Assembly: GCA_022711335.1 (NCBI GenBank)
Contig: JAKLFF010000001.1
Location: 40,260 to 104,259, forward strand
Origin: Patescibacteria group bacterium
GTDB lineage: Bacteria; Patescibacteriota; Minisyncoccia; Moranbacterales; UBA2206
Reading direction: 5' to 3'
Length of the DNA: 64,000 nucleotides
The notes beneath the pieces are model-generated. The model had not been told where the DNA came from. It searched no databases and saw nothing but the letters and a program-made list of their open reading frames with translations. A program made the position numbers and the translations under genes. Below are positions 38,502-63,110 of the stretch, piece by piece; positions within the stretch are counted from its first letter, which is position 1, and each line of letters opens with the position of its first letter.

Positions 38502-38667
38502 GGGACACTCCTTGGCTGAAAAGTTAATAAGCTAAAAAGTGCAGGTTGAACACATTATATATTTAAACTTGAATTTGTCAAAATGGCTTAATTTGGATGA
38601 AAGTAGCAATTTGAATTTTTTTGTTCTTTGAAGTATGCTTAATTCATCAAGAGATAAAAAAATAATT

Positions 38668-39714
38668 ATGCGAAAAATACTTATTGTAGGCGCAAAAGGG
38701 ATGTTGGGGCAAGAATTGGTCAAAACGTTTAGGAAAGACAGTGATTACAAAGTAATTGCCTGGGACAAAGAAGATATAGATATCACGCGGGAAAAAGAGG
38801 TAGACAAAAAAATCGGCATAATTAAGCCGAGTATTATTATCAATGCGGCGGCATATAATGCGGTGGATAAGTGCGAGGAAAATAAAAAAGAATTTGGATT
38901 GGCCAAAGAAATAAACGGTCTGGCGCCAGGATATTTGGCGAAAGCGGCAAAGAAAATAAAAGCGGTTTTAATCCACTATTCAACCGATTACGTTTTTGAT
39001 GGTGATTTAGAGAAGTTATTGTTTTCCGAGCCATCTGGCCCGCTTCGACTCGATGAGACATCTCGTCGAATCGAGGCGAGCTGCTCTCATGTTTGCGCGA
39101 CTTGTTTGCTTCATGAAAACGGGGAAATAGGTTATGGCGAAGATCATGAACCCAATCCAATCAGCAATTACGGAAAAAGCAAGCTGATGGGCGAGCAGGA
39201 AATTCAGAAAAATTATAAAAATCATTATATTATCCGCCTTTCCAAATTGTTTGGCAAGCCAGCCCAAGCTGAAGGAGCCAAAAAAAGTTTTTTTGATGTG
39301 ATGTTGGAGTTAGGCAAAAATCCGCCAGCTGGCGGAAAAGAAATTCACCCTGTTGAATACGCCGCAAAGCGGCGTCCGCCAGAGGCGGAATTCAATAGGG
39401 TAAAAGCTGTTGACGAAGAAACCAGCTGTTTCACTTATGCTCCAGATTTGGCCAAGAAGACCAAGGAAATAATTAATAGCAAAAAGCCGTTTGGCATTTA
39501 TCATGTAACTAACAGTAGATCTTGCACCTGGTACGAAGCTTGCGTGGAGCTCTATAAACTGGCTAAGATTAAAACAAAAGTGATTCCAGTTCCAGCATCT
39601 GAATTTCCACGTCCGGCCAAAAGGCCGATGTATTCGGTTTTATTAAATACAAAATTAAATCCACTCCGGGATTGGAAAGAAGCTTTAAGGGAGTATTTAA
39701 AAAATAATAAATAA
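38668..39714 (+). CDS. rmlD: dTDP-4-dehydrorhamnose reductase (RmlD/RfbD) with two GC-rich palindromic in-frame insertions
   Basis: MRKILIVGAKGMLGQ is the Rossmann N-terminus. HYSTDYVFDG and YGKSKLMGE are catalytic-region motifs. The start was moved to 38668. The protein is ~50 aa longer than canonical. Confidence 0.8.
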   Translation: MRKILIVGAKGMLGQELVKTFRKDSDYKVIAWDKEDIDITREKEVDKKIGIIKPSIIINAAAYNAVDKCEENKKEFGLAKEINGLAPGYLAKAAKKIKAVLIHYSTDYVFDGDLEKLLFSEPSGPLRLDETSRRIEASCSHVCATCLLHENGEIGYGEDHEPNPISNYGKSKLMGEQEIQKNYKNHYIIRLSKLFGKPAQAEGAKKSFFDVMLELGKNPPAGGKEIHPVEYAAKRRPPEAEFNRVKAVDEETSCFTYAPDLAKKTKEIINSKKPFGIYHVTNSRSCTWYEACVELYKLAKIKTKVIPVPASEFPRPAKRPMYSVLLNTKLNPLRDWKEALREYLKNNK

Positions 39715-39717
39715 GTC

Positions 39718-40959
39718 ATGAAAAATCTTAAAAAACAAGATCCACAAATTCACAAAGCAATAATAGGGGAATTAAAAAGACAGCAGGAGGGAATGGAGCT
39801 TATCGCATCGGAAAATTATGTTTCAGAAGCTGTTCTCGAAGCGTTGGGCAGTGTTTTTACGAACAAATATAGTGAAGGATATCCGGGGCAAAGATATTAT
39901 GGCGGACAGGAATATACCGATGTTGTTGAAAAAATAGCGATTGACCGGGCGAAGAAAATATTTGGAGCCCAGCATGTCAATGTTCAGCCTCACTCAGGCG
40001 CGCCAGCCAATATCATTTGCTATTTTGCACTTCTGAAACCAGGCGATACCGTTCTTGGCATGGATCTCTCGCATGGCGGACATTTGACGCATGGCCACCC
40101 GGTGACGCTTCCAGCCAAAATTTACAACTTTGTTCGCTACAAAACCAAGGCTGATGGGAAAATTGATTATAAGGAATTAGAAGAAATAGCCGTGAAACAT
40201 AAACCGAAACTAATCTTGGCTGGATTTTCAGCCTATACTAGGCAATTGGATTATAAAAAATTCAGAGCTATCGGGAAAAAAGTGGGAGCGATTACAATGT
40301 TTGACATTGCCCACATTGCCGGACTCATCGCAGGAAAAGCTCTTCCAAACCCAGTTCCATATTTTGATGTTGTGACAACGACAACTCATAAAACTCTCCG
40401 CGGTCCGCGAGGTGGAATGATAATGTGCAAAAAGAAGTATGCCCAGGCAATCGACAAAGCCACTTTTCCAGGGTTTCAGGGCGGACCGCACGAGAATAAT
40501 GTGGCTGCCAAAGCGGTGGCGTTTGGCGAAGCGTTGAAGCCGTCTTTCCGGTTATACGCAAAGCAAATCATCAAAAATGCCAAAGTTTTAGAAAAAGAGC
40601 TGACAAAACACGGATTCAAGCTGATGTTTGGCGGGACGGATAACCATATGGTTCTGGTAGATGTGTTTGGATCAAAGGGCGTAACTGGAAAAGAAGCGGA
40701 AGTGGCGCTCGACAAAGTAGGCATAACGCTTAATAAGAACATGATTCCGGACGATTCGAGAAATCCCATGGATCCAAGCGGAATCCGCATCGGCGTTCCG
40801 GCGGTGACCACTCGCGGGATGAAGGAAAAAGAAATTGTGAAAATCGCCAAATGGATAAAAGATACGATTGAGAATCACAGAAATAACAAAAAACTGAAAG
40901 AAATTAAAAAAGAAGTGATTGCGCTGTGCAAAAGATTTCCAATATATAAAAATTTATAA
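39718..40959 (+). CDS. glyA: Serine hydroxymethyltransferase
   Basis: LIASENYVSEAVLEALGSVFTNKYSEGYPGQRYYGG is present. The PLP-Lys region is TTTTHKTLRGPRGG. Confidence 0.9.
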   Translation: MKNLKKQDPQIHKAIIGELKRQQEGMELIASENYVSEAVLEALGSVFTNKYSEGYPGQRYYGGQEYTDVVEKIAIDRAKKIFGAQHVNVQPHSGAPANIICYFALLKPGDTVLGMDLSHGGHLTHGHPVTLPAKIYNFVRYKTKADGKIDYKELEEIAVKHKPKLILAGFSAYTRQLDYKKFRAIGKKVGAITMFDIAHIAGLIAGKALPNPVPYFDVVTTTTHKTLRGPRGGMIMCKKKYAQAIDKATFPGFQGGPHENNVAAKAVAFGEALKPSFRLYAKQIIKNAKVLEKELTKHGFKLMFGGTDNHMVLVDVFGSKGVTGKEAEVALDKVGITLNKNMIPDDSRNPMDPSGIRIGVPAVTTRGMKEKEIVKIAKWIKDTIENHRNNKKLKEIKKEVIALCKRFPIYKNL

Positions 40960-40966
40960 TAACTAT

Positions 40967-41764
40967 ATGAAGGGAATTATATTGTCCGGCGGGACGGCTA
41001 CGCGCCTTTTTCCGTTGACAGCCACAACTTCAAAACAATTGCTTCCGGTTTACGACCGGCAGATGGTTTTCTATCCGTTAAACACACTTATAAAAGCCGG
41101 AATAAAAGATATTTTGGTGATAGTTTCTCCGGAACACAGCGGACAATATCTGAATTTGCTTGGATCAATTTTTAAAAATCATGGCGTTCATCTGTATTTT
41201 GAAGTGCAGAAAGTTCCGCGCGGTCTTGCGGAAGCTTTTATTTTAGGAGAAAGTTTTATTGATGATGACAACGTGACTATGATTTTGGGAGACAATATTT
41301 TCGAACCGGATTTTTCCAAGGAGATAAATAACTTTGAATCCGGTGGGCTTGTTTTTGCCAAGAAAGTGCCTGATCCGGAACGGTACGGGGTGGTGAAATT
41401 TGACAAAAGCAATAAGGCGGTGGAAATTGTCGAAAAGCCCAAAAAATGGATAAGCGATTATGCCATTCCGGGACTGTATATTTATGACAACCGAGTTATT
41501 GAAGCAGCCAAAAAAGCCCAGCCTTCCGAGCGGGGAGAAATAGAAATAACATCACTTCATAATTATTATCTTAATCTCGGAGAGCTGAAAGTGAGCACTT
41601 TTTCCGGCGAATGGCTAGACGCGGGGACTTTTGATTCGCTTCTGGAAGCCGGCCGGATTGTGAAAGAAAAGAAAATTTATAAAAAGTTCGATCCGATGAT
41701 CGATGAAGCCATAGCGGAATTCAATGAAGATCTCAAAGCTTTGGCGAAGAAAAGATTGTTGTAA
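40967..41764 (+). CDS. rmlA: Glucose-1-phosphate thymidylyltransferase (RmlA-like, short form)
   Basis: MKGIILSGGTATRLFPLTATTSKQLLPVYDRQMVFYPL. The start was moved to 40967. Confidence 0.8.
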   Translation: MKGIILSGGTATRLFPLTATTSKQLLPVYDRQMVFYPLNTLIKAGIKDILVIVSPEHSGQYLNLLGSIFKNHGVHLYFEVQKVPRGLAEAFILGESFIDDDNVTMILGDNIFEPDFSKEINNFESGGLVFAKKVPDPERYGVVKFDKSNKAVEIVEKPKKWISDYAIPGLYIYDNRVIEAAKKAQPSERGEIEITSLHNYYLNLGELKVSTFSGEWLDAGTFDSLLEAGRIVKEKKIYKKFDPMIDEAIAEFNEDLKALAKKRLL

Positions 41765-41782
41765 TAATTAAAATTTACAAGC

Positions 41783-42655
41783 ATGACTAAAATTAAAAAA
41801 GCTATTCTTCCAGTTGCGGGTTTTGGAACCCGGTTCTTGCCGGCGACTAAAGCCCAGCCGAAAGAAATGCTTCCGGTCGTTGACAAGCCAGCTATTCAAT
41901 ATTTGGTCGAAGAAGCAGCGGCAGCTGGAATTGAAGAAATTGTTTTTGTAACCGGTCGCGGAAAAAGAGCTATTGAAGATCATTTTGACTATTCATACGA
42001 GCTTGATCATACGCTAGTTGAAAAAAATAAGCACGATTTGGTCAAAAAAGTGAGGGAAGTTGAAGATTTGGCAAAATTTTCATATGTTCGACAACCCGTT
42101 CCTCTGGGAGACGGCCATGCTGTTCTTTGCGCTCGGCATATTGTTGGAGATGAGCCTGTGCTTGTGATGTTCGGCGATAGTTTATATGACAGCGAAGTTC
42201 CCGCTGCAAAACAACTTATTGATGTATATGAAAAATATAATGATGTCGTGGTTGGTTTGTCCGAAGTAAAACCAGACGAGGTTGAAAGATTTGGCGTTAT
42301 AGACGGAATTGATATCGGAAATGGAATCTATGAGATTAAAAAATTTGTCGAGAAGCCCAAAAAAGAAGAAGCGCCAAGCAATTTAGTGGCGGTTGGAAAA
42401 TATATAATAACTCCCGAAATTTTTGAGCTGTTGTCGACAATGAAAGGCGGAAAATCGGGAGAAATAAGGCTGGCTGACGCTTTTGATCTGATGTTGCAGA
42501 AAAACAGGCCGATTTACGGAAAAAAACTGGATGGCGAATGGCTGGATACGGGCGAAAAGCTTACTTTTATCACAACAACCATAAAGCTTGGTATAAAGCA
42601 TCCTGAAATAGGAGAAAAACTAAAAAGATTTATTAAAGAACTTGATATAAAATGA
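41783..42655 (+). CDS. galU: UTP--glucose-1-phosphate uridylyltransferase
   Basis: KAILPVAGFGTRFLPATKAQPKEMLPVVDKPAIQYLVEEA. Confidence 0.85.
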   Translation: MTKIKKAILPVAGFGTRFLPATKAQPKEMLPVVDKPAIQYLVEEAAAAGIEEIVFVTGRGKRAIEDHFDYSYELDHTLVEKNKHDLVKKVREVEDLAKFSYVRQPVPLGDGHAVLCARHIVGDEPVLVMFGDSLYDSEVPAAKQLIDVYEKYNDVVVGLSEVKPDEVERFGVIDGIDIGNGIYEIKKFVEKPKKEEAPSNLVAVGKYIITPEIFELLSTMKGGKSGEIRLADAFDLMLQKNRPIYGKKLDGEWLDTGEKLTFITTTIKLGIKHPEIGEKLKRFIKELDIK

Positions 42656-43923
42656 AAATTGCCATTCAAGCGGCGGATTTGGACAGCCAGCGGATTGATG
42701 GAACGCGGGTTTATATTTTGAATGTTCTAAAATACTTTGGAAAGCTCGATGAATCCAGTGATTTTTTGGTTTATCATAAAAAGAATTTCAATTCGGAACT
42801 CGAGCCGCCGGAATTTCCAAACTACAAAATAATTCAAAAAAATTCAGCTTGTATCTGGACGCAGACCAGATTTGCCTGGGAAATTTGGAAAGACAAGCCG
42901 GATGTCCTCTGGATGCCGATGCAGGCGCTTCCAATTATACGAAGGAAAAATCTTAAAACCGTGATAACTGTCCACGATCTGGCTTTCAAAATTTTTCCGA
43001 ATCAATTTACAAGAAATGATTTAAGGCGACTAAATTTTTATGCCGATTACGCTATAAAAAATTCTTCAAAAATAATCGCTGTTTCGGAGTCGACAAAAAA
43101 AGATATTTTAAAGTTTTATCCTGAAATAAAAGAAGATAAAATCAAAGTTATTTATCATGGGTTCGATGAAGGAGTTTTTGGTAAAAGATATGATAATAGT
43201 GAGATACTGGATATTTTGGAGAAATATAATATTATCAATAAAGTTCAAAGTTCAAAGTTCAAAGTTCAAAGCTACAGTTCAAAACTAAAAGTTACTTTTA
43301 AATACCTGCTATATGTCGGAGCTTTACAGCCAAGGAAAAATTTGATTTTATTGGTTAAGGCATTCGAAAGACTAAAAGAAAAATATTGTCATTCCGGCCA
43401 ACGAGCCGGAATCCAGTCTGGAAACAAAGATAATGCACTAGATTCCCGCTTTCGCGGGAATGACAAAAACGCCGGTGATTTTAGCAATTTGAAATTAGTT
43501 TTGGTTGGGAAACCAGCCTGGATGGCGGAAGAAATTTTAGAAAGAATAAAAAAATCAGAATTTGCAAACGATATAATTTTAGCCGGCCAAGTTGGCTTTG
43601 GTGATCTTGGTAAAATTTATCAAGGCGCCAGCGCTTTTGTGTTTCCCTCGCTTTATGAAGGCTTCGGGATTCCGATTTTGGAAGCTTTTGCGTCGGGAGT
43701 GTCGGTGATTTGCGCCAACAATTCTTCTCTTCCGGAAGTAGCCGGAGAAGCGGCGCTTTATTTCAAAAATAATAATCCTCAAGATTTAGCCATACAAATT
43801 GAAAAAATATTATTAAGCGAAGAATTTAAAAAAGACCTTGTTTCAAAAGGCCTCTTGCAGCTTCGAAAATTTTCTTGGGAAAAATGCGCCCGGGAAACTT
43901 TAAGTTATCTCAAATCAGGCTAA
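42652..43923 (+). CDS. Family-4 (GT-B) glycosyltransferase carrying a 7-bp tandem repeat and an in-frame MITE-like insertion in the interdomain region
   Basis: The C-terminal GT4 core is LLYVGALQPRKNL...FVFPSLYEGFGIPILEAFASGVSVICAN. Confidence 0.75.
   Translation: MKIAIQAADLDSQRIDGTRVYILNVLKYFGKLDESSDFLVYHKKNFNSELEPPEFPNYKIIQKNSACIWTQTRFAWEIWKDKPDVLWMPMQALPIIRRKNLKTVITVHDLAFKIFPNQFTRNDLRRLNFYADYAIKNSSKIIAVSESTKKDILKFYPEIKEDKIKVIYHGFDEGVFGKRYDNSEILDILEKYNIINKVQSSKFKVQSYSSKLKVTFKYLLYVGALQPRKNLILLVKAFERLKEKYCHSGQRAGIQSGNKDNALDSRFRGNDKNAGDFSNLKLVLVGKPAWMAEEILERIKKSEFANDIILAGQVGFGDLGKIYQGASAFVFPSLYEGFGIPILEAFASGVSVICANNSSLPEVAGEAALYFKNNNPQDLAIQIEKILLSEEFKKDLVSKGLLQLRKFSWEKCARETLSYLKSG
43241..43271 (+). 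repeat. Heptanucleotide tandem repeat (AAGTTCA)x4.4 inside the GT4 coding sequence
   Basis: aagttca aagttca aagttca aagttca aag. It translates as KVQSSKFKVQS. Confidence 0.85.
43387..43465. mobile_element. MITE-like double-hairpin element, copy 3, in-frame inside the GT4 gene
   Basis: tgtcattccggccaacgagccggaatccag, a spacer, then ctagattcccgctttcgcgggaatgaca. The encoded peptide is CHSGQRAGIQSGNKDNALDSRFRGNDK. Confidence 0.9.
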
Positions 43924-44321
43924 TTTTCTCCAAGCAGCAGTTTATAAATAAAATACCCGGTGGCTATTGCCAGAAAAGTTATAAAAATATTTAAAATCAG
44001 ATTTATTTTAATAAGGCTGACAAAAAGCAGCGCTATAAGAATAAAAATCAGCAAAATAGCTGTTTTTTTGTTTATTTTATTTTCAGCCAGTTTGATGCCC
44101 GCTTCGTTTCCAATATAAAAAACAGCCAGAATTGTGATTCCAACTGCGATTAGGATTTTTGAAAATCCGACATGGGATGTCACAGTTCCGGGCAATAATC
44201 CTTCGCCAATAAGCGCCAGCAAGAAGAAAATAATCTCAATAAACAGAAGATCATTGAGGAGTTTATATGAGATTATTAAATTGTTTTTGTTTATCTTGCT
44301 AAGCAGTTTGCTCGATTCCAT
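43920..44321 (-). CDS. Hypothetical small polytopic membrane protein
   Basis: 133 aa with about 4 TM helices. Confidence 0.45.
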   Translation of the reverse strand: MESSKLLSKINKNNLIISYKLLNDLLFIEIIFFLLALIGEGLLPGTVTSHVGFSKILIAVGITILAVFYIGNEAGIKLAENKINKKTAILLIFILIALLFVSLIKINLILNIFITFLAIATGYFIYKLLLGEN

Positions 44322-45456
44322 AATTAGCCATTATTTTATTAATCAAATCGCGGATAGTTGCTTTGAAATTATCCCAGCTTATTTGTTTTTTAAATGTTAC
44401 ATTAATCTTATCGATTTTTATTTCTTTGTTGGAATTTAATTGGAATTCATAATCTTTTCCGATCAAACCGGAAAACTTTTCAAGCGGAATTTCGCAGGAA
44501 TAAGTTCGGAGGCTCAAGATTTCTTTTTTAAGTCTGCAAGCCTCAATTGTTTCAAGGCTTTTTGCAGAAACGTCGACTGGGCCGGTTTTGCCTAAAGAAT
44601 TTAAAACTTCGCTGCTAGGAATAGAATTCTTCTTTCCATTTTCGACCAGATAGCTTTTTTTTGTGTCACTGGCGGTAAAAATCGTTCCATTGGGATGGGG
44701 ACTGCTGATTGTGAATAGCTTGTCTTTTTCATAAAAACTGATTTCATCGGCAGATGCGGGTATTACATTTTTCCAATTGTAGCCCATGGCGGAAAAAGTA
44801 ACCGTATTGTTTATCGGCAATATTTTTCCAGAGCTGACGACATAGGCGGAAATGCCGTAACTTAGAAGCGTTCCGTCGGCGTAGCCGATCATGTTTTCAT
44901 CAAGCGGATATTGGTTTAGGATTTTTGAATCTGCGATGGATGCTGCGCTTTCGTCATATCTGGAAGAGTAGGCGTTCTGGCTTATGAATTTTTGAAGCCT
45001 TCCATCGGTCAGCTTATAATAATCATCGTTTATCTTATAAATAACGGCATTTTCAACTTTAATCGGATCTCCTTCCGGATAGAAGAAAGACTGAAAAGAT
45101 TTTCTAGCCCTGATTTCCGAATCTTCAGGATTTTCAGAGGCTTTATCCATGGCCAACTCGATTTTTGCCTGTCCGTAATTTCCTGCAAGAGCTGCATCAA
45201 AGACAAGCTTATCGGCGGCGTCTATTTGCCCATGCTCCAAATAATTTCCTTCCGAATCTCTCGGGCTGATAACCGTATTTTTGAGCGAATTGGGAGTTGA
45301 AAAATTGTATGCAAAATAAGCGCTGGGAAATAGAATCAAGTAAGCGAAATAAATTGCTGATAGAAATGCAAGCAAATATAAAAACGCTTGTAGCTTCTTA
45401 TATGAGCCGTATTTTTTCTGGTCCATAAGAATCTGTCGAGTAAAATCTGGAAGCAT
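44299..45456 (-). CDS. Hypothetical protein with N-terminal TM anchor and large extracytoplasmic domain
   Basis: 385 aa with the TM AFLYLLAFLSAIYFAYLILF. No family motif was recognised. Confidence 0.5.
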   Translation of the reverse strand: MLPDFTRQILMDQKKYGSYKKLQAFLYLLAFLSAIYFAYLILFPSAYFAYNFSTPNSLKNTVISPRDSEGNYLEHGQIDAADKLVFDAALAGNYGQAKIELAMDKASENPEDSEIRARKSFQSFFYPEGDPIKVENAVIYKINDDYYKLTDGRLQKFISQNAYSSRYDESAASIADSKILNQYPLDENMIGYADGTLLSYGISAYVVSSGKILPINNTVTFSAMGYNWKNVIPASADEISFYEKDKLFTISSPHPNGTIFTASDTKKSYLVENGKKNSIPSSEVLNSLGKTGPVDVSAKSLETIEACRLKKEILSLRTYSCEIPLEKFSGLIGKDYEFQLNSNKEIKIDKINVTFKKQISWDNFKATIRDLINKIMANYGIEQTA

Positions 45457-45525
45457 GGAATTTCTATTTCTTGAACATTAAAAATTAGAATTTATTTAAA
45501 AATTACAAAATTAAAAATTATAAAA

Positions 45526-50042: not shown

Positions 50043-50057
50043 AATCGCATAGTTGCC

Positions 50058-55471: not shown

Positions 55472-55472
55472 C

Positions 55473-57071: not shown

Positions 57072-57080
57072 GCCTAAATC

Positions 57081-58829
57081 TTATTTAACAGAATTTACCC
57101 TTTCTTCGATTATAGCTAAATTTTTCTTTAAGTTTTCGTCAGTCGGGTTGATTTCTATGGCTTTTTTCATGCTTTCGTAGGCTTTTTGATAATTTCCCTG
57201 GTTAAAATATATTCCGGCCAAGTTTTGATGGGATTGCCAGATGTTAGGGTTTATGGAAAGCGCTTTTTGATAATTTTCAATAGCTAAATCAGCTTTTCCC
57301 AGGGAATTATAAGTATTGGCCAGATTATGGTAAGCATCGCCATAATTAGGGTTAATCTCTATGGATTTTTTGAATTCTTCAGCGGCTTTTTCAAAATCTC
57401 CATTTCTGGCATAAACATCACCCATATTGTTATGGATATTAGGACCGGACGAAGCGACTTTGGCTGTAGCGATCCAGAGGTTATCTTCATTTTTCCAGTC
57501 AATATTGCGGACAATGGTTCTTGTTGAGAGTGCGGCTATTATTATTGCAAAGGTGAAATAGACGGCCATTTTATATTTTTCATCTTCTTCTTCCAGCTTT
57601 CTGGCGGCCCAGTCAAAAAACATGGCGACAACAACAAAAATTCCGATTGATCCGAGATAAACATAACGTTCCGCCACAATCCAAGCGATCTTGAACGGAG
57701 TAAGAACGGGCAGGAGAGAAATGAAAAAAAATGAGAGCCAGAAAAAAAGACGCTTATTTTTCTTCCATCCATAGAAGACAAGTCCTAAAAATATCAGAAA
57801 AACGATTGCCATAAGGGTGAACTGGGCGGGAGAGAAATTCATTTCTGTCTGATAAAGACTTAATTTTTGCGGCCAGAAAATAAGCTTGAAATAATTGGCT
57901 ATGGCGGTTGGAACCTGGACGAGAGGATTATACATTCCGCTAGAATCCTGATAGCTGACCGCACTGATTTCGCTGACTCTTTTTCCTATTTCTGATACGG
58001 AGAACATTACAAAAAACAAGTCTATAAAGAAGAAAGGAGCGATCTTCAGCCAGTTTTTTCTGAGGTTGCTTCGGGACATCTCAAAAGCAAAGATTATTCC
58101 GGGAAAAATAATTGCTTTTGCAGAGCTCATAACCGCCAGAAAAAAGGACAATAATGAAAGATATTTTAAACTTTTTCTTTCCTTTGAATTTATATAAAAT
58201 AAAAAAGACAAAAGCAGAAAAAAAGAATACAAAGCGTAAGGCATTCCCGCAATCCATGCTACTGATTCCACTAGAATTGGATGGACGGCAAAAATAGCCG
58301 CTCCAAAAACAGCAATTCTCTTATTTGCGAGAATATTGAGAATGGAGAAGAGTAAGATAGTTGATCCAAAATGCAAAGATATGTTTATAATTCGAAAGGC
58401 CCACGGAGATCCTCCTCCCAAATGGAAGGCGACATAATATAGGGACATCTGGATAGAATTCAATAAATTGGAAAAAACCAGAGAAAGCTTCCCCACCTCG
58501 GGATTGTTTTTTATCGTTGCCACATCGTCTGAAACAAACTGATTTCCGATAGAATTCGAGTAGCATATTAATATTAATATAAAGAGAAAAGCAAAAATAT
58601 TGATGTTATCGGCAAAAAATTTTTTAAAGCCTGGACTATTGATTTTTTCTGGAATTTTTTGAGATGCTTCTTTTCTGAAAAATTTTTCATATTTTTCCGT
58701 TCCCCACTGTTTTTTCAAATATTTTCGTATTTCTTTTTCCGGCAAGCCAAGATCAACGGTTATTTTTTCAATAGGCAATTTCCCGATATTTTTTTTGATA
58801 TAATGTTTTTGACTCGAGGTTAGCGGCAT
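57081..58829 (-). CDS. TMTC/PMT_2-like GT-C-fold membrane glycosyltransferase with C-terminal TPR repeats
   Basis: The N-terminal polytopic domain has the first-loop motif NQFVSDDVATI (F-x-x-DD). The C-terminus has four or more TPR units (AYHNLANTYNSLGKADLAIENYQKALSINP...). Confidence 0.6.
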   Translation of the reverse strand: MPLTSSQKHYIKKNIGKLPIEKITVDLGLPEKEIRKYLKKQWGTEKYEKFFRKEASQKIPEKINSPGFKKFFADNINIFAFLFILILICYSNSIGNQFVSDDVATIKNNPEVGKLSLVFSNLLNSIQMSLYYVAFHLGGGSPWAFRIINISLHFGSTILLFSILNILANKRIAVFGAAIFAVHPILVESVAWIAGMPYALYSFFLLLSFLFYINSKERKSLKYLSLLSFFLAVMSSAKAIIFPGIIFAFEMSRSNLRKNWLKIAPFFFIDLFFVMFSVSEIGKRVSEISAVSYQDSSGMYNPLVQVPTAIANYFKLIFWPQKLSLYQTEMNFSPAQFTLMAIVFLIFLGLVFYGWKKNKRLFFWLSFFFISLLPVLTPFKIAWIVAERYVYLGSIGIFVVVAMFFDWAARKLEEEDEKYKMAVYFTFAIIIAALSTRTIVRNIDWKNEDNLWIATAKVASSGPNIHNNMGDVYARNGDFEKAAEEFKKSIEINPNYGDAYHNLANTYNSLGKADLAIENYQKALSINPNIWQSHQNLAGIYFNQGNYQKAYESMKKAIEINPTDENLKKNLAIIEERVNSVK

Positions 58830-58891
58830 AAGTTTTAAATTTAATTGTCATTACAATGATAATATAGTATTCTTCATAAGTAAATAAAGAT

Positions 58892-59389
58892 ATGGGAATA
58901 CCTCTTCCAATTCACATTTCAATACATGTCATTCTTAGCCTGATTGCGGGAATGATCGTTTGGCGGATCTGGAAAAAGCCGGCCGCTGCTTTTTTGAACG
59001 CGCTGATTTCCGGCGTGGCGGTGGATTTCGACCATTTCATCGATTATTTCATGGCTTTTGGATGGAGTTTCAATTTCTATTATTTTACCAAAGGATATGA
59101 ATTTCTGAAAACCAACAAGATGTATACGCTTTTTCACGGCTGGGAATATGCGGCAATTCTTTTCCTTGCGGTATTTTTATTAAAAAATAAAACGGCTAAA
59201 ACAGCACTCCTGGCTTTGGCGCTTGGACTTTTTTTCCATCTTGGAGCTGATGTCGTGATTGACAAGATTCCGGTTAAATCATATTCGATCATAAACAAGA
59301 TAGGAAAAAATTTTGAAATGCAAAAATTAGTCACCCCGGAGCACTGGCAGAAGCACGAGAAAAAAAGAGAGCGGTTGAAATTCGAATAA
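58892..59389 (+). CDS. Hypothetical polytopic membrane protein
   Basis: 165 aa with about 4 TM helices and a conserved-looking DFDHFIDY motif. Confidence 0.45.
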   Translation: MGIPLPIHISIHVILSLIAGMIVWRIWKKPAAAFLNALISGVAVDFDHFIDYFMAFGWSFNFYYFTKGYEFLKTNKMYTLFHGWEYAAILFLAVFLLKNKTAKTALLALALGLFFHLGADVVIDKIPVKSYSIINKIGKNFEMQKLVTPEHWQKHEKKRERLKFE

Positions 59390-59409
59390 TTTTTCATATA
59401 TATAGCATA

Positions 59410-60222
59410 ATGAAAAAACTTGTTTCAATTATAATTACGACAAAAAACGAGGAGAAGAACGCAGAAAATTGCTTGAAATCGATAAAAAGACAGAGCTACC
59501 CGCAGGAACTTATGGAAGTTATTGTTGTAGATAACGATTCTTCCGATAAAACAAAGGAAATCGCTCTGAAATATACGAATAATTTTTTCAATAAGGGTCC
59601 GGAACGATCGGCGCAAAGAAATTTTGGAGTGGAAAAATCAAAAGGAGAATATTTTATTTTTCTGGACGCCGATATGATTTTAAGCGAAAAAGTGATTGAG
59701 AGATGCGTTAAAAAAGTTGAAAATAATCCCAAAATTATCGCTCTCTATATTTCTGAAATAGTAACAGGCAAAAAGTTTTTTTCCAAAGTGCGCCGCTTTG
59801 AGCGCAGTTTTTATGACGGTACGGTGATTGATGGAGTGCGTTTTATCAGAAAGGACAAGTTTCTGGAAGTTGGAGGCTTTGATGAAAAGCTAACCGGTCC
59901 GGAAGACTGGGATTTAGACAAAAAACTTAGATTGATCGGAAGAATAGATTCAATTAAAACTCCGATTTATCACAACGAAGCAGAATTCGATTTAAAAAAA
60001 TATTTATCCAAAAAAGGATATTATGCCAAAAAATTCGATGAATATATTTCAAAATGGGGAAAAAATGACCCTGATCTCAAAAAACAATTCGGGGTTTATT
60101 ATAGGTTTTTAGGCGTTTTTATAGAAAATGGAAAATGGAAAAAAATTATTGCGCATCCTATTCTGACAGCCGGAATGTATTTTTTGAGATTTTTGGTAGG
60201 AATTAAATTTTTATTAAGATGA
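59410..60222 (+). CDS. Family-2 glycosyltransferase
   Basis: VSIIITTKNEEKN...VVDNDSSDKT...FIFLDADMIL. Confidence 0.8.
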   Translation: MKKLVSIIITTKNEEKNAENCLKSIKRQSYPQELMEVIVVDNDSSDKTKEIALKYTNNFFNKGPERSAQRNFGVEKSKGEYFIFLDADMILSEKVIERCVKKVENNPKIIALYISEIVTGKKFFSKVRRFERSFYDGTVIDGVRFIRKDKFLEVGGFDEKLTGPEDWDLDKKLRLIGRIDSIKTPIYHNEAEFDLKKYLSKKGYYAKKFDEYISKWGKNDPDLKKQFGVYYRFLGVFIENGKWKKIIAHPILTAGMYFLRFLVGIKFLLR

Positions 60223-61232
60223 AAAAAAATAATTTAATTTCCTTACCGCTGATAAATGCCCATACTCACGCCGCTATGGTGGCTTTTCGGGGCCAAGCTG
60301 AAGATTTGCCATTGCAAGTGTGGCTTAAAAAGCATATCTGGCCGGCCGAAGCTAAACATGTCAATCCAAAATTTATCTATAAACATGCCAAAAAAGCCAT
60401 AAAAGAAATGAAAAAAAACGGAATTGCGGCTTTTTGTGATATGTATTTTTTTGAGGACGAAGTGGCGCGGGCGGCTCGAGAGTTGAAAATGAAAGTTGTA
60501 ATCGGGGAAGTAATTTTAGATTTTCCGACGGCTAGCTATAAAAATACGGAAGAAGCTTTTGCCATTGTCGAAAGGCAATTAAAAAAATACAAAAACGACA
60601 AATATGTTAAAGTAGCGGTGGCTCCGCATTCTATTTATGCGGTTTCAAAAGAAAATCTGGTAAAAGCCAAAAAACTGGCGAAAAAATATAATGCGCCTAT
60701 TCATATTCATCTGGCGGAAACGAAATTTGAATTTAATGAGTGCAAGAAAAAAAATAAATGCACACCAGTAGAATATTTGGACAAACTGGGAATTTTGAAT
60801 AATAAGGCAATTTTGGCTCATTGCGTCTGGCTGACTGACAAAGATATAAAAATATTAGCTGAAAGAAAATCTAATATTGTCCATTGTCCCTTGAGTAATC
60901 TGAAATTGGGTTCGGGAATTGCGCCGACGGCCAAGATGATAGAAAAAGGAGTGAATGTATGTCTTGGCACTGATGGCGCGGCCAGTTCCAACCGGCTTGA
61001 TATTTGGGAAGCGGGTAAATTCGCGGCGCTTCTGCAAAAAGGGGCAAATAATAATCCAACGCATATTCCAGCTAAAAAAGCGATGGAAATGATGACGATA
61101 AATGGACTGCGCGCTTTGGGCATAAAAAAAATAGGAGGGAAGTTGCCAAAAGATATTAAAAAGAATATAAATAATACAAGGGACTTTAGTTCTATTTACC
61201 ACTTAAACGTCAATAATATTAATTTTAAATAA
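60219..61232 (+). CDS. Amidohydrolase-superfamily deaminase (MTA/SAH-deaminase MtaD-like)
   Basis: LINAHTHAAMVAFRGQAEDLPLQVWLKKHIWPAEAK is present. IHLAETKFE and HC..L follow. Confidence 0.7.
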   Translation: MKKNNLISLPLINAHTHAAMVAFRGQAEDLPLQVWLKKHIWPAEAKHVNPKFIYKHAKKAIKEMKKNGIAAFCDMYFFEDEVARAARELKMKVVIGEVILDFPTASYKNTEEAFAIVERQLKKYKNDKYVKVAVAPHSIYAVSKENLVKAKKLAKKYNAPIHIHLAETKFEFNECKKKNKCTPVEYLDKLGILNNKAILAHCVWLTDKDIKILAERKSNIVHCPLSNLKLGSGIAPTAKMIEKGVNVCLGTDGAASSNRLDIWEAGKFAALLQKGANNNPTHIPAKKAMEMMTINGLRALGIKKIGGKLPKDIKKNINNTRDFSSIYHLNVNNINFK

Positions 61233-61233
61233 C

Positions 61234-62031
61234 ATGAAAGTAGTTATCCTGGCCGGAGGCTTGGGGACACGCCTTAGTGAAGAAACGTCCATCCGGCCTA
61301 AGCCGATGGTGGAAATCGGCGATAAGCCGATTCTTTGGCACATAATGAAAATTTATTCCCATTATGGGTTTAATGATTTTATCGTCTGCCTCGGTTATAA
61401 GGGATTTTATATCAAGGAGTGGTTTAATAATTATTATCTTCATAATAGCGACGTTACTTTCGATCTATCTAAAAACAAAGTAAGCTATCCCAAGAATCAT
61501 TGTGAAAAATGGAAAGTTACTCTTGTTGACACGGGTGACGAAACAATGACCGGTGGCCGGATAAAACGCATTCGGGAATATGTGGGGAATAAAACATTTA
61601 TGATGACTTATGGGGATGGGGTAGGGGATGTAGATATCAAAGAATTGGTAAAGTGCCATAAGAAAAATAAAAAGATTGCCACTGTCACGGCGGTTACTCC
61701 CGAAGGAAGGTTTGGTACGCTGAAAATCAACAAAGAACGTCGCGTTACATGTTTTAGTGAGAAAACTGATAATCAGAAGAGAATCAACGCTGGATTTTTT
61801 GTTCTAGAACCGAAAATATTTGATTATCTTAAAGGGGACGACGTGTTTTTTGAGAAGGAACCGCTGGAAAGGCTGGCGCATAACGGCCAGCTCCAGGCTT
61901 TTTTTCATGACGGATTTTGGAAGCCAATGGATAATTTGAATGATAAGAATAAGTTGAACGATATGTGGAAAAACAGGCAGGCGCCGTGGCAAATATGGAA
62001 AGGAAAAGGAGCTTGCGTGAATATATCTTAA
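61234..62031 (+). CDS. rfbF: Glucose-1-phosphate cytidylyltransferase
   Basis: MKVVILAGGLGTRLSEETSIRPKPMVEIGDKPILWHIMKIYSHYGFNDFIVCLGYKG. Confidence 0.85.
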   Translation: MKVVILAGGLGTRLSEETSIRPKPMVEIGDKPILWHIMKIYSHYGFNDFIVCLGYKGFYIKEWFNNYYLHNSDVTFDLSKNKVSYPKNHCEKWKVTLVDTGDETMTGGRIKRIREYVGNKTFMMTYGDGVGDVDIKELVKCHKKNKKIATVTAVTPEGRFGTLKINKERRVTCFSEKTDNQKRINAGFFVLEPKIFDYLKGDDVFFEKEPLERLAHNGQLQAFFHDGFWKPMDNLNDKNKLNDMWKNRQAPWQIWKGKGACVNIS

Positions 62032-62043
62032 ATATGGAAACAT

Positions 62044-63110
62044 TTTTCAAAGATAAAAAAATACTCATCACCGGGCATACGGGATTTAAGGGCAGCTGGC
62101 TCACCCAGATACTTTTGAATTGGGGCGCTAAAGTATCCGGAGTTTCACTGTTGCCGGAAACGGCTCCTAATCTTTTTGATATTCTAAAAATAAAAGGGCG
62201 GGCGAATAGTTATTTTTATGATATTAGGAGCTATTATGCAGTAGTAGAGGCTATAAAAGCGGAAAAGCCGGAGATAGTTTTTCATCTGGCGGCTCAGCCG
62301 ATTGTTAGGGTCAGCTATGACGATCCGCTGAAAACTTTTTCTACTAACGTGATGGGAACATCGCATATCCTTCAGGCCATGAAAGAAGCAGGCGGAGTAA
62401 AATCGGCGGTCATCATCACTACCGACAAGGTTTATGAAAACAAGGAATGGATTTATCCATACCGGGAAAACGACGCCTTGGGCGGATATGATCCGTATTC
62501 CGCATCAAAAGCGGCAGCGGATATCATTGCCAATTCTTATGTCCAATCTTTTTTTAATGTTGCTGATTTTCAAAAAAAGCATGATACGCTTGTGGCGATA
62601 GCAAGGGCTGGCAATGTCATCGGCGGGGGAGACTGGGCGCCATATCGCCTGGTGCCGGATATCGTTCGTTCAATATACGAAAAAGATGAATCAGTAGAAA
62701 TTAGAAGTCCGCATGCTATTCGTCCCTGGGAGCATGTTTTGGAGCCGCTTTCCGGATATCTGATGCTGGCTCAAGGTTTATTCGAAGGAAAAAAAGAACT
62801 TTCCGGCGCCTGGAATTTCGGTCCGGACAGCGAAAGCTTTATGACTGTTAAAGAGCTGGTCGCGGGAGCTATTAAATTTTTGGAAAAAGGTTCAGTCGAC
62901 ATCCGGTTGGATCCTGACTCTCAAAAACACGAAGCCGGCCTTCTTACGCTGGATACCAGTAAATCCAAAACTTATTTGGGCTGGAAGCCGAGGCTAAAGT
63001 TTCATGAAAATCTGGAATTTACTTTCAGCTGGTATAAAAATTATTATGAAAAAGCAACTAATCCAATAGAATTTACCAATAGGCAGATAGAGGAATTTTT
63101 TATTAAATAA
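62044..63110 (+). CDS. rfbG: CDP-glucose 4,6-dehydratase
   Basis: KKILITGHTGFKGSWLTQILLNWGAKV is present, with YSASKAA. The start was moved to the ATG at 62044. Confidence 0.85.

Follow-up and report, generated by a model that had tools for sequence, protein, structure and literature searches.

What does a single-membrane bacterium of the candidate phyla radiation (CPR) make with a dense cluster of glycan biosynthesis genes, and to what acceptor is the product transferred? The question is raised by positions 38635-63110 of the window, the whole stretch of 64,000 nucleotides analyzed here, from the metagenome-assembled genome of an uncultivated Candidatus Moranbacteria.

Two adjacent modules

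We checked the gene calls with Pfam, NCBIfam, PDB sequence matches, and structure comparison, and nearly every call was confirmed (Table 1). An earlier note on this DNA had described a glycan biosynthesis and glycosylation island, and all the genes that it listed were recovered at or near the same coordinates. Pfam and NCBIfam bear out the rmlD-glyA-rmlA-galU start and the rfbF-rfbG end, except that RmlA is only RmlA-like, being below the equivalog cutoff, and the number of cytoplasmic-type glycosyltransferases drops from seven to six (GT4a, GT4b, GT4c, the GtrB-like GT2, GT2b, and GT2c). As an island of foreign DNA, the locus does not stand: its G+C content (0.35-0.42) matches that of the remaining window, and its gene order is syntenic in relatives. 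Neither does it represent one pathway. Tblastn searches and gene tables resolve two independently conserved modules: module A, from rmlD to the SDR gene (38635-52270), which holds the membrane glycosyltransferase GT-C1 together with two family-less membrane partners, and module B, from the Wzx gene to rfbG (52267-63110), with a core of GT2b, the B12 radical-SAM enzyme, a GT-C enzyme carrying TPR repeats (TPR-GT-C), and GT2c. Module A occurs without module B in sister loci L006 and L007, and L008 and L009 have only module B of the two.

Table 1. Genes of the locus and its flanks, with positions in the window
Feature	Position	Strand	Evidence
Membrane GT2 (563 aa) and WecA/MraY-family polyprenyl-phosphate sugar-phosphate transferase (343 aa)	31124..33858	+	PF13632, PF00953; transmembrane profiles
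rmlD, dTDP-4-dehydrorhamnose reductase, 359 aa; first gene of module A	38635..39714	+	TIGR01214 228 bits (cutoff 224); PF04321
glyA, serine hydroxymethyltransferase (SHMT)	39718..40959	+	PF00464 523 bits; 83-90% identity in L005-L007
RmlA-like glucose-1-phosphate nucleotidylyltransferase, 265 aa from ATG 40967	40967..41764	+	TIGR01207 279 bits, below equivalog cutoff of about 360
galU, UTP-glucose-1-phosphate uridylyltransferase	41783..42655	+	TIGR01099 340 bits (cutoff 327)
GT4a, GT-B glycosyltransferase	42652..43923	+	PF00534, PF13439
Small family-less protein, conserved GT-C1 partner	43920..44321	-	No Pfam or NCBIfam match; hydropathy
385-aa protein with N-terminal membrane anchor, conserved GT-C1 partner	44299..45456	-	No Pfam, NCBIfam or PDB match; 35-65% identity in L005-L007
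GT-C1, GT-C fold membrane glycosyltransferase, 595 aa	45526..47310	-	Structure comparison; in no curated family
GT4b, GT-B glycosyltransferase	47377..48564	+	PF00534, PF13439; 61-79% identity in L005-L007
DUF4012 protein, N-terminal membrane anchor	48627..50042	+	PF13196 80 bits; transmembrane segment residues 14-32
GT4c, GT4-like glycosyltransferase	50058..51323	+	PF00534 38 bits; 61-76% identity in L005-L007
SDR sugar epimerase/dehydratase; last gene of module A	51320..52270	+	No equivalog cutoff reached
Wzx-type flippase; first gene of module B	52267..53532	+	PF01943 56 bits; 11 hydrophobic segments; 44% identity in L008
GtrB/ArnC-type polyprenyl-phosphate glycosyltransferase (GT2)	53529..54473	+	PDB 5EKP; ArnC; PgfS model 235 bits
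GT2b, GT2 with three C-terminal transmembrane helices	54470..55471	+	PF00535, PF13632
B12-binding (class B) radical-SAM enzyme, motif CWWGKCTFC	55473..57071	+	PF02310, PF04055
TPR-GT-C	57081..58829	-	N-terminal cytoplasmic domain (residues 1-56), 11-helix GT-C membrane domain, ~4 C-terminal TPRs
165-aa family-less membrane protein, divergent from TPR-GT-C	58892..59389	+	No Pfam match
GT2c, GT2 glycosyltransferase	59410..60222	+	PF00535 97 bits
MtaD/TRZ-ATZ-type amidohydrolase	60219..61232	+	PRK09045 352 bits; 5'-deoxyadenosine deaminase model 253 bits
rfbF, glucose-1-phosphate cytidylyltransferase	61234..62031	+	TIGR02623 400 bits (cutoff 300)
rfbG, CDP-glucose 4,6-dehydratase	62034..63110	+	TIGR02622 467 bits (cutoff 278), aligned from residue 27
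NUDIX hydrolase	63251..63793	+	PF00293; 34% identity to same-position gene in L008

Within module A, glyA sits between rmlD and rmlA in every sister locus examined, and rmlD carries short insertions relative to its L005 and L007 orthologs. The RmlA-like open reading frame opens at 40919, with the 265-aa gene called in public assemblies. The SDR protein scored 178 bits against the dTDP-glucose 4,6-dehydratase model (cutoff 365) and 172 bits against the GalE model (cutoff 262), and is 75-88% identical to its counterparts in L005 and L007 but 35% in L006. Among the window open reading frames scanned with profiles, there is neither rmlC (PF00908) nor an RmlB equivalog, as the earlier note had observed, and the use of rhamnose is therefore unproven. 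In GT4c, Pfam recognizes only the C-terminal GT-B domain. The small family-less protein keeps its position in L005-L007, where the called genes encode 132-134 aa, with 67% identity in L005, and could be a small flippase or an accessory subunit. In L005 and L006, module A also includes Wzm/Wzt-type ABC transporter genes.

In module B, the GtrB-type GT2, which ends in two transmembrane helices, aligns from end to end with the Synechocystis GtrB structure 5EKP (residues 7-306, E = 2e-70) and also matches ArnC (E = 1e-39). Its previous assignment as a polyprenyl-phosphate glycosyltransferase is upheld, the protein being a true member of the GtrB/ArnC type, and it is predicted to make the lipid-linked monosaccharide donor. 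The radical-SAM enzyme has homologs with 63-82% identity. The putative MtaD-like deaminase does belong to the TRZ/ATZ/MtaD-type amidohydrolases, but the match is partial, covering the catalytic barrel only (profile positions 64-365 of 444, with the HxH motif at residues 14-16); the enzyme may deaminate 5'-deoxyadenosine or SAH released by the radical-SAM enzyme. The rfbG open reading frame opens at 61965, and a NUDIX relative follows rfbG in L008 as well. The WecA/MraY-family transferase, encoded outside the cluster, is a candidate for the initiating step.

The heptamer and palindromic repeats, the latter previously taken for MITE insertions, are indeed present, and all lie inside open reading frames. 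GT4a carries in-frame insertions of both kinds, the heptamer repeat at 43240-43283 and one palindromic copy at 43403-43466 (43441), and aligns to its orthologs with an extra stretch of ~30 aa; the radical-SAM gene contains an in-frame insertion of two palindromic-repeat copies (56011-56080, at 56011 and 56057).

The two GT-C enzymes

Structure comparison and confident AlphaFold models (pLDDT 86-87) establish the GT-C fold of both large membrane proteins, as proposed originally, and neither matches any Pfam family of O-antigen ligases or polymerases (Wzy-type), the contrary assignment that had been envisaged. GT-C1, formerly placed with a start at 47352 and no minus-strand label, reads from the minus strand, with 47310 as its most likely start, in agreement with the 595 aa of the public record. 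All 21 of its top structural matches are GT-C enzymes, and it is closer to ALG12 (24.4) than to ArnT or Pmt4 (18.5 each), with STT3B (20.0) and AglB (19.4) in between; no solved structure was matched by sequence. The description 'ArnT/PMT-like' accordingly applies at the level of the fold but not at that of the family, where the PMT_2 score (19.7 bits) is under the cutoff of 26.1. The C-terminal domain of GT-C1 (residues about 480-593) is beta-rich and extracytoplasmic.

The TPR-GT-C has both the F-x-x-DD loop motif and the C-terminal TPR repeats ascribed to it. The motif, F97-V98-S99-D100-D101, lies in the first extracytoplasmic loop; among 44 homologs, the S99-D100-D101 stretch never varies, and F97 and V98 hardly do. 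By helix order and hydropathy, the DD loop faces outward, as do the TPRs. The likeness to the eukaryotic TMTC proteins extends to this layout (~11 transmembrane helices, DD in the first outer loop, C-terminal TPRs) and to shared DD, FAVHPI, and AER-Y motifs: the six residues of FAVHPI are identical in the human TMTC3 segment LLFAVHPIHT (PMC7801869), and AERYVY corresponds to TMTC motif M7. It does not extend to family membership, which we reject: DUF1736 gave no match in the TPR-GT-C even at E <= 10, the SHKSYRP motif characteristic of TMTCs is absent from it, and it has only ~4 TPRs.

Gene linkage across 80 loci

For 80 genome loci with a TPR-GT-C relative, we searched by tblastn for relatives of the partner genes. 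The GT2b/GT2c family is represented nearby in 60 of the 80, with GT2b as the commonest neighbor (43 loci) and GT2c matched in 30 (median identity 61%), and a radical-SAM relative is present in 40, usually within about 2 kb. Wzx is found in 24-28 loci and the amidohydrolase in four, and methyl- and acetyltransferases also appear in relatives. The earlier note had emphasized the pairing of a lipid-linked donor synthase with the TPR-GT-C; this is not general, with a GtrB-type synthase in 9/80 loci, all from close Moranbacteria, against GT2b and the radical-SAM enzyme as the usual partners. The 165-aa membrane protein occupies the same place in 14 relatives, all 14 of which also have the radical-SAM gene.

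One TPR-GT-C subfamily has no radical-SAM gene close by. There, a LysM protein with a membrane anchor and a linker rich in Ser/Thr/Gln/Pro is encoded directly upstream of the TPR-GT-C relative and on the same strand in 22/22 of the loci that have this protein. This arrangement is side evidence for a protein acceptor.

A proposed route and its candidate acceptors

We propose, with a probability of about 0.6 for the scheme as a whole, that this single-membrane CPR cell inherited the locus vertically and uses it as cell-envelope glycan machinery, organized in two modules. The gene identities, both GT-C folds, the catalytic-loop motif, the membrane topology, and the conserved linkage are observed; the sugars, the order of steps, the substrate of the radical-SAM enzyme, and the acceptor are deduced by analogy with known systems. 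In module A, RmlD, the RmlA-like enzyme, GalU, and the SDR protein would supply dTDP-rhamnose-type and UDP-glucose donors, and the three GT4-type enzymes would assemble a polyprenyl-linked glycan on the cytoplasmic side, to be extended or decorated outside the membrane by GT-C1 and its two family-less partners. In module B, activated sugars from RfbF and RfbG, along with the GalU product of module A, would be loaded onto polyprenyl phosphate by the GtrB-type GT2 and/or the membrane-anchored GT2b; the radical-SAM enzyme probably C-methylates or rearranges the sugar or its precursor; Wzx would flip the lipid-linked glycan across the membrane; and the TPR-GT-C would transfer it to an extracytoplasmic acceptor selected by the TPR domain.

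Of the two candidate acceptors, Ser/Thr residues of surface proteins seem slightly more likely than a wall polysaccharide. Systems that combine a GtrB-type GT-A enzyme, a flippase, and a GT-C enzyme decorate wall polymers in Gram-positive bacteria (PMC8035078) and O-glycosylate Ser/Thr-rich protein regions in streptococci (10.1101/2024.05.05.592596). Protein O-glycosylation, the function favored by the earlier note, is plausible but unproven; it is deduced from architecture, and the machinery of polysaccharide secretion has TPR domains too. A role in decorating a rhamnose-type wall polysaccharide is about equally fitting, and the polysaccharide- or oligosaccharide-like surroundings (Wzx, GT2s, GT4s, methyl- and acetyltransferases) agree with the decoration of a polymer, or with the transfer of an entire oligosaccharide, no less than with protein mannosylation-type chemistry.

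It is possible, although clearly less likely than the scheme above, that no protein is glycosylated at all and that the locus makes and decorates a wall-anchored rhamnose-type polymer comparable to those of the streptococcal gac/rgp and lactococcal cwps clusters, with both GT-C enzymes adding side-chain sugars outside the membrane and the TPRs binding the polymer or a partner protein. The rmlD gene at the head of the cluster followed by GT4 enzymes, the ABC transporter genes in module A of L005 and L006, a WecA/TagO-type initiating enzyme 5 kb upstream, and the methyl- and acetyltransferases of the relatives, typical of glycan tailoring, are all consistent with such a polymer, and the export proteins PgaA and BcsC, likewise with TPR domains, are among the TPR matches. 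The GtrB-like GT2, the Wzx-type flippase, and the GT-C enzyme mirror GacI, GacK, and GacL, and small membrane proteins comparable to GacJ are encoded in the locus too (PMC8035078). However, TPR-GT-C relatives occur in many CPR lineages without module A nearby and, in the 22 LysM loci, are located directly downstream of the LysM gene rather than beside polysaccharide genes; the characterized GT-C enzymes with a C-terminal TPR domain (TMTC1-4, TMEM260) act on proteins, as O-mannosyltransferases (PMC7801869, PMC10214176); and the window lacks an LCP-type ligase in addition to rmlB and rmlC.

A lipid acceptor is improbable. Under this scenario, GT2b, the radical-SAM enzyme, and their neighbors would build a modified sugar head group on a membrane lipid, as in the hopanoid pathway, where the GT2 HpnI is followed by HpnJ, a ring-contracting B12 radical-SAM enzyme that acts on the sugar, and the GT-C enzymes would extend a glycolipid or lipoglycan. 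Among curated models, HpnJ matches the radical-SAM enzyme best (E = 1e-44, with most of the model covered), and the radical-SAM gene adjoins that of a membrane-embedded GT2, a pairing that is common among the relatives in the 80 loci; the combination of GT4s, GT-Cs, and a polyprenyl-phosphate sugar synthase also resembles mycobacterial PIM/LM/LAM synthesis. Yet, the HpnJ score of 153 bits is far below the cutoff of 578, so the enzyme is not an HpnJ ortholog; HpnB, HpnA, and HpnR are all far below their cutoffs, HpnI and HpnK are absent among the matches, and a TPR domain would be unexpected for a lipid acceptor. Moreover, we know of no hopanoid pathway in CPR bacteria, most of which appear unable to make their own lipids. 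Maturation of a ribosomal peptide or protein, methylated by the radical-SAM enzyme and then glycosylated by the GT2 and GT-C enzymes as for glycocins or RiPPs, is less probable still: the matches to RiPP-type B12 radical-SAM families (ApyD, 77 bits; rSAM_ocin_1, 51 bits) are weak and far below cutoffs, the gaps of 2-60 bases beside the radical-SAM and TPR genes are too small for a precursor gene, neither a precursor gene nor one for a protease or exporter turned up, and the neighboring genes are typical of sugar metabolism.

The surface-sugar gene cluster is, then, genuine yet fairly ordinary. Its unusual part is the TPR-GT-C, an enzyme that occurs across the CPR and whose gene usually neighbors that of a B12 radical-SAM enzyme.

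Organization of the locus and its repeats

The stretch from 38635 to 63110 is, according to ORF listing combined with Pfam and NCBIfam scans, an almost gapless run of sugar-metabolism genes, in agreement with the glycan gene cluster that an earlier note had delineated there from the sequence alone. The locus recurs in several metagenome assemblies, and its G+C content (0.35-0.42) is the same as that of the remaining window; because the G+C is flat and relatives keep the order of the genes, we rejected the view that this is a foreign genomic island. The genes for CDP-6-deoxyhexose synthesis, rfbF and rfbG, both encode products scoring above the respective cutoffs, and no enzymes for the downstream steps to a 3,6-dideoxyhexose are encoded between rfbG and the window end (64000); in the related locus L008, the rfbF/rfbG region is followed by genes for a DegT aminotransferase and a TPP-dependent enzyme. 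The dTDP-rhamnose set is partial among the window ORFs scanned, with RmlD above its cutoff, RmlA below, and neither an RmlB equivalog nor an RmlC domain (PF00908) found; the earlier note, too, had missed rmlB and rmlC in the window. RmlD itself is 359 aa long vs 311-331 aa in relatives and contains two internal insertions, one of them common to L005, another related locus. At 5 kb upstream of the locus, beyond prmC, prfA, and other small genes, lie a synthase-like membrane GT2 and a WecA/MraY-family transferase, which may supply the initiating step.

Features of the window, with positions, strand, and matches
Feature	Position	Strand	Match or remark
Palindromic repeat	1037-1100
Palindromic repeat	2450-2513
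TrwB/VirD4-type coupling ATPase	13137-15143
PEP-CTERM protein	17874-18626	+	PF07589, 29.9 bits vs cutoff 20.7
PilM/FtsA-like protein	20701-21969
Membrane protein, 669 aa	22106-24115		Ser-rich low-complexity region; no family match
Membrane GT2 (563 aa) and WecA/MraY-family pair	31124-33858
WecA-type enzyme (second member of this pair)	32827-33858
rmlD	38635-39714	+	TIGR01214, 228 bits vs cutoff 224
glyA	after rmlD	+
RmlA-like nucleotidyltransferase		+	279 bits, under cutoff 361
galU		+	340 bits vs cutoff 327
GT4a	42652-43923	+
Heptamer array	43240-43283		AAAGTTC, 6.4 copies
Palindromic repeat	43403-43466
133-aa membrane protein	43920-44321	-	no family
385-aa membrane protein	44299-45456	-	no family
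GT-C1	45526-47310	-	595 aa
GT4b	47377-48564	+
DUF4012 protein		+
GT4c	50058-51323	+	C-terminal GT-B domain, the sole recognized part
SDR epimerase/dehydratase		+
Wzx-type flippase	52267 (start)	+
GtrB-like GT2	53529-54473	+	one of three GT2 enzymes
GT2b	54470-55471	+
B12-binding radical-SAM protein	55473-57071	+
Palindromic repeat	56011-56034	-
Palindromic repeat	56057-56080	+
TPR-GT-C	57081-58829	-
165-aa protein	58892-59389
GT2c	59410-60222	+
TRZ/ATZ/MtaD-type amidohydrolase	60219-61232	+
rfbF		+	400 bits vs cutoff 300
rfbG		+	467 bits vs cutoff 278
NUDIX protein	after rfbG	+

On the basis of the gene tables of relatives and tblastn searches with all window proteins, the locus separates into two modules. 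Module A (38635-52270) runs from rmlD, glyA, the rmlA-like gene, galU, and GT4a through a minus-strand trio (the 133-aa protein, the 385-aa protein, and the membrane enzyme GT-C1) to GT4b, in some cases the DUF4012 gene, GT4c, and the SDR gene. This order is preserved in the related loci L005, L006, and L007, mostly at 45-90% identity, with L006 and L007 holding module A by itself, L005 and L006 carrying additional Wzm/Wzt-type ABC transporter genes, and L007 having an rmlC gene and another SDR gene next to rmlD. Module B (52267-63110) consists of Wzx, the GtrB-like GT2, GT2b, the radical-SAM gene, the gene for the TPR-bearing GT-C enzyme (TPR-GT-C) on the minus strand, the 165-aa membrane protein, GT2c, rfbF, rfbG, and the NUDIX gene; it occurs without module A in L008 (34-75% identity) and, reduced to the core of GT2b, radical-SAM, TPR-GT-C, and GT2c, in L009. 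The GtrB-like GT2 accompanies module B and not GT-C1.

The heptamer repeat and the repeat insertions that had been reported in the locus are indeed there, inside the GT4a and radical-SAM ORFs. A palindromic repeat with the core GATTCCCGCTTTCGCGGGAATGAC is present in five copies vs none expected by chance, and three of the four copies internal to ORFs lie within stretches inserted in frame. GT4a has one of these, in an insertion of about 30 residues, and the radical-SAM protein has two, in its interdomain linker; the fourth is inside a radical-SAM gene at 752-2422. By analogy, the repeat resembles the palindromic elements of Rickettsia, which insert into coding sequence. The heptamer array, also within the GT4a ORF, encodes a KVQSSKFKVQS-type stretch that is missing from the orthologs in L006 and L007. 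Elsewhere, the window encodes a coupling ATPase, a PilM/FtsA-like protein followed by a membrane protein with a Ser-rich region, and a secreted protein of about 200 aa with a terminal PEP-CTERM motif, which one would not expect to find in the genome of a single-membrane CPR bacterium; the window showed no exosortase.

The two GT-C enzymes and the comparison with TMTC

The assignment of the GT-C fold to both large membrane proteins was confirmed by structure comparison of AlphaFold models generated from alignments of 44 homologs of TPR-GT-C (pLDDT 86, pTM 0.79) and 45 homologs of GT-C1 (pLDDT 87, pTM 0.90). Each protein has a multi-spanning membrane domain with a conserved GT-C core, and the first extracytoplasmic loop contains invariant acidic residues, D96 (next to an equally invariant R95) in all 45 GT-C1 sequences, and D100 and D101 in all 44 TPR-GT-C sequences. 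The membrane domain of TPR-GT-C matches ALG12 (19.2), Pmt4 (18.2), Pmt2, AglB, and STT3B (18.0), interleaved with matches to the TPRs, and comparison of the predicted structures picks out no particular GT-C family; ALG12 and STT3 are equally close to the window proteins as ArnT and PMT, or closer. The previously suggested ArnT/PMT-like character of GT-C1 thus holds for the fold but not for sequence membership, given that it scores only 19.7 bits against PMT_2 (cutoff 26.1), has no PDB sequence match at E <= 10, and falls outside ArnT (GT83). Similarly, TPR-GT-C, with 19.8-21.8 bits and no MIR domain, falls outside PMT (GT39), and the consensus of its family exceeds the PMT_2 cutoff (29.4 bits). 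GT-C1 also scores 38 bits with the LA_3751/LA_3752 family model, vs a cutoff of 200. PDB profile searches returned only TPR matches for the full TPR-GT-C alignment and nothing at E <= 10 for its membrane-only alignment or the GT-C1 alignment; therefore, no solved structure can be named as a sequence-level relative of either membrane domain. We rejected the possibility that the two families are close paralogs, the hhalign probability being only 23%. GT-C1 represents a second GT-C family in the same locus, along with two unknown partners: the 385-aa protein has no Pfam match at E <= 10 and only chance-level phmmer matches in the PDB, and the 133-aa protein, as well as the 165-aa protein of module B, has only chance-level Pfam matches at that threshold (E > 0.04).

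Judging from the helix order in the model, hydropathy, and Pfam TPR matches, TPR-GT-C begins with a Lys-rich domain (residues 1-56), which is followed by 11 membrane helices and approximately four TPRs at 460-580; the DD loop faces the outer side of the membrane, as do the TPRs. This predicted layout is that of TMTC1-4 (GT105) and TMEM260, about 11 helices followed by extracytoplasmic TPRs, except that TMTCs carry more TPRs and that TPR-GT-C has an additional, cytoplasmic N-terminal domain and would use a bacterial polyprenyl rather than a dolichol donor. Across the 44 homologs, the invariant or nearly invariant residues are F97-V98-S99-D100-D101 in the first outer loop; A180, H182, P183, and E187, inside 'FAVHPILVES'; P373 and P377; and W382, V384, A385, E386, R387, Y388, and Y390, inside 'WIVAERYVY'. 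In TMTCs, seven motifs have been described, M1 (DD), M2 (SHKSYRP), M3 (RxD), M4 (KE(T/Q)xxT), M5 (DW), M6 (PxxP), and M7 (ERxxY), along with the segments 'LLFAVHPIHT' in human TMTC3 and 'AERV' in TMTC1, and DUF1736 (PF08409), the loop connecting helices 7 and 8, which all human TMTCs match at E < 1e-30 (PMC7801869). Reading TPR-GT-C by eye against the text of that publication, we found M1, as the invariant DD of the first outer loop; M7, as AERYVY ahead of the tenth helix; and, in the third transmembrane helix, the six residues FAVHPI identical to those of human TMTC3. M6 is approximate, in the form of the ninth-helix prolines P373 and P377, M4 is partial (S235, K237; consensus 'SSEKA'), and M2, M3, and M5 were not found by this reading. 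DUF1736 gave no match at E <= 10 with either TPR-GT-C or the family consensus and none of the 120 homologs has it in its precomputed Pfam annotation. Hence the likeness to TMTC drawn in the earlier note stands with respect to the predicted architecture, the C-terminal TPRs, and the F-x-x-DD motif, and a distant relationship is probable, but membership in the TMTC family was rejected given the absence of DUF1736 at E <= 10 and, in the reading by eye, of M2, M3, and M5. The name 'protein O-mannosyl-transferase' attached to the homologs at JGI appears to be an automated label, and our literature search found nothing specific on bacterial TPR-GT-C enzymes.

Gene neighbors and the B12 radical-SAM enzyme

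Scanning a single genome from each species yielded 228 relatives of TPR-GT-C, and 80 loci were kept, from Moranbacteria, Daviesbacteria, Roizmanbacteria, Shapirobacteria, Beckwithbacteria, Saccharibacteria, and a few Omnitrophota; at 39-54% identity, the enzyme spans Parcubacteria, Microgenomates, and Saccharibacteria. Many MAG records in this set (loci L015, L016, L025, L026, L028, and others) are labelled 'uncultured Gammaproteobacteria', 'Bdellovibrionales', or 'Pseudomonadales' and yet look like CPR, with 40-54% identical proteins in the same gene order; these labels are, maybe, placeholder taxonomy. By tblastn, a relative of the radical-SAM protein is encoded in 40 of the 80 loci, usually within about 2 kb, and relatives of GT2b, GT2c, and Wzx in 43, 30, and 24, respectively; unbiased clustering of all ORFs agrees, placing members of the GT2b/GT2c family in 60 loci and of the radical-SAM family in 40. 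The GtrB-like GT2 is present in only 9. The cluster that was to be compared across sister genomes is conserved, but as two modules rather than as one unit.

The 80 loci also differ in residues 1-56 of TPR-GT-C, a conserved Lys-rich, helical cytoplasmic domain without a family match that tracks with the radical-SAM gene. It is encoded in 53 loci, among which the radical-SAM gene is found in 36 and GT2b/GT2c in 47, several of the exceptions being loci that end at a contig end, and it is missing in 27, where the radical-SAM gene is found in 4. Directly upstream of the TPR-GT-C gene, on the same strand, 18 of these 27 loci encode a membrane-anchored protein of 222 aa with a linker rich in Ser, Thr, Gln, and Pro and, as read by eye, apparently two LysM repeats. 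Altogether, the LysM gene occurs in 22 of the 80 loci (for example, L072, 9267-9935), from Daviesbacteria and others, none of which overlaps with the radical-SAM loci, and its product is a candidate acceptor or partner of the TPR-GT-C relatives.

The radical-SAM protein was correctly recognized as B12-binding: it matches the cobalamin-binding domain PF02310 (41.7 bits) and PF04055 (56.6 bits), retains the motif CWWGKCTFC together with its relatives in L008 and L009, and thus has the features of class B. Its best curated match is HpnJ (TIGR03471), at 153 bits vs a cutoff of 578, about a quarter, and because this score is so far under the cutoff, the enzyme can be assigned, at the level of sequence, to a family of its own. 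Over the best 120 matches, it is better conserved (63-82% identity) than TPR-GT-C, and at least 19 of these matches agree with TPR-GT-C matches in the length of the longest contig and hence seem to be on the same contigs. The frequent adjacency of the radical-SAM gene to GT2b suggests that the radical-SAM enzyme may act on the product or substrate of GT2b. An analogous arrangement is known for the hopanoid side chain, which involves HpnI (a GT2), HpnK, and HpnJ (a B12 radical-SAM enzyme): here, too, a GT2 gene adjoins a class B radical-SAM gene with HpnJ as the best match, but HpnI and HpnK are not among the window matches, and we know of no hopanoid pathway in CPR bacteria. The deaminase described as MtaD-like is indeed a TRZ/ATZ/MtaD-type amidohydrolase, albeit one reduced to the catalytic barrel (it spans positions 64-365 of the 444 in the profile and lacks the flanking segments), with the HxH and downstream metal-ligand motifs kept. 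Since it resembles 5'-deoxyadenosine and SAH deaminases, it could clear by-products of the radical-SAM reaction; it is restricted to the nearest relatives (4 of the 80 loci).

Known glycosylation systems and the acceptor of TPR-GT-C

The polyprenol-phosphate GT2 of module B, perceived earlier as DPM1/GtrB-like, matches GtrB (5EKP) at E = 2e-70 over residues 7-306, ArnC at E = 1e-39, and DPMS at E = 4e-13, and has two C-terminal transmembrane helices (236-254 and 268-286), as in GtrB, ArnC, and DPM1; by sequence, it can be considered a genuine GtrB/ArnC-type polyprenyl-phosphate glycosyltransferase. Its top NCBIfam match is the PgfS model, with 235 bits, under the equivalog cutoff of 500. GT2b has three C-terminal helices and no similarity to GtrB. 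[quoted passage not shown] Wzx, the GtrB-like GT2, and TPR-GT-C, which lie inside 6.5 kb and recur as a set in L008 and 8 other loci, match this scheme, and TPR-GT-C would perform the transfer step.

Among the characterized examples, the GacI/J/K/L system of Streptococcus pyogenes is the nearest to the window locus, and in gacA-L, too, rmlD heads the cluster (PMC8035078). Like Gac, CsbB/GtcA/YfhO, and the Lactococcus lactis systems CsdAB/CD/EF with CflA, the locus encodes a membrane-linked GtrB-type GT-A making a polyprenyl-phosphate sugar, a Wzx-type flippase adjoining it (compare GacK), multi-spanning GT-C enzymes predicted to work outside the membrane, and small accessory membrane proteins. 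Unlike in these Gram-positive systems, the GT-C enzymes match no solved structure by sequence, one of them has C-terminal TPRs and a cytoplasmic N-terminal domain, and the gene for this one usually has genes for a B12 radical-SAM enzyme and another membrane GT2 as linked neighbors. The streptococcal pairs GtrB with PgtC2, a YfhO-family enzyme, and PgfS with PgfM1 O-glycosylate Ser/Thr-rich, disordered, extracytoplasmic regions of membrane proteins, with no mention of a TPR domain (10.1101/2024.05.05.592596). Streptococci are, likewise, single-membrane bacteria with a PgfS/GtrB-type synthase, and the Pgf system (PgfS, PgfM1, PgfE, PgfM2) is made up of the same components, with an SDR epimerase and two GT-C enzymes in one locus; neither streptococcal system has a radical-SAM partner.

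Module A is reminiscent of the rhamnose-rich wall polysaccharide clusters (gac, rgp, cwps, epa), with which the window shares RmlD and an RmlA-like enzyme, GT4 and GT2 enzymes, and a TagO/WecA-type initiating enzyme nearby, and the sister loci L005 and L006 share ABC transporter genes. In such clusters, GT-C enzymes decorate the polysaccharide outside the membrane. The differences are that the window lacks rmlB and rmlC and showed no LCP ligase, the window copy has Wzx instead of an ABC exporter, and module A also includes glyA and DUF4012. Taken as a whole, then, the locus belongs to a familiar type, the envelope-glycan clusters whose GT-C steps are extracytoplasmic, and within it is an uncharacterized CPR-wide variant in which a B12 radical-SAM enzyme and a membrane GT2 accompany a TMTC-like TPR-GT-C.

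The characterized GT-C enzymes with C-terminal TPRs, TMTC1-4 and TMEM260, are protein O-mannosyltransferases (PMC7801869, PMC10214176), and a protein acceptor is plausible for the bacterial enzyme, too, considering the motifs it has in common with TMTCs, the occurrence of its relatives without module A, and the LysM-linker gene directly upstream in the second context, the loci lacking the N-terminal domain. A polysaccharide acceptor appears only slightly less likely to us, in view of the polysaccharide-type genes in the neighborhood, the glycan-tailoring methyl- and acetyltransferases in relatives, the resemblance of module A to the rhamnose clusters, and the fact that TPRs are known in polysaccharide export machinery as well. 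The interpretation in the earlier note is, accordingly, partly supported: the glycan cluster, the GT-C folds, and the GtrB-type GT2 stand, and the proposed protein O-glycosylation is plausible alongside glycosylation of a polysaccharide. If the acceptor is a protein, a lipid-linked sugar could first undergo C-methylation or rearrangement through radical chemistry, and the TMTC-like enzyme would then attach the modified sugar to Ser/Thr of surface proteins. We give a probability of only about 0.15 to this entire reading, that is, that TPR-GT-C, the B12 radical-SAM enzyme, and the membrane GT2 form a CPR-wide system of surface-protein glycosylation with a radical-modified lipid-linked sugar.

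Should this prove to be the case, the system would be a bacterial counterpart, and possibly an evolutionary relative, of eukaryotic TMTC O-mannosylation, and would include the first known radical-SAM step on a polyprenyl-linked sugar; should only a wall polysaccharide be decorated, the locus would be no more than a typical case of a well-known class. CPR bacteria are believed to be attached to host cells, and, to our knowledge, almost nothing is known of their surface chemistry; our literature search found nothing specific on glycosylation in CPR/Patescibacteria. The locus shows that Moranbacteria retain two conserved envelope-glycan modules, and TPR-GT-C, as a probable prokaryotic relative, can be set against the eukaryotic O-mannosyltransferases TMTC and TMEM260. 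The TPR-GT-C/radical-SAM neighborhood provides a concrete set of genes to express and assay for what CPR bacteria display on their surface.
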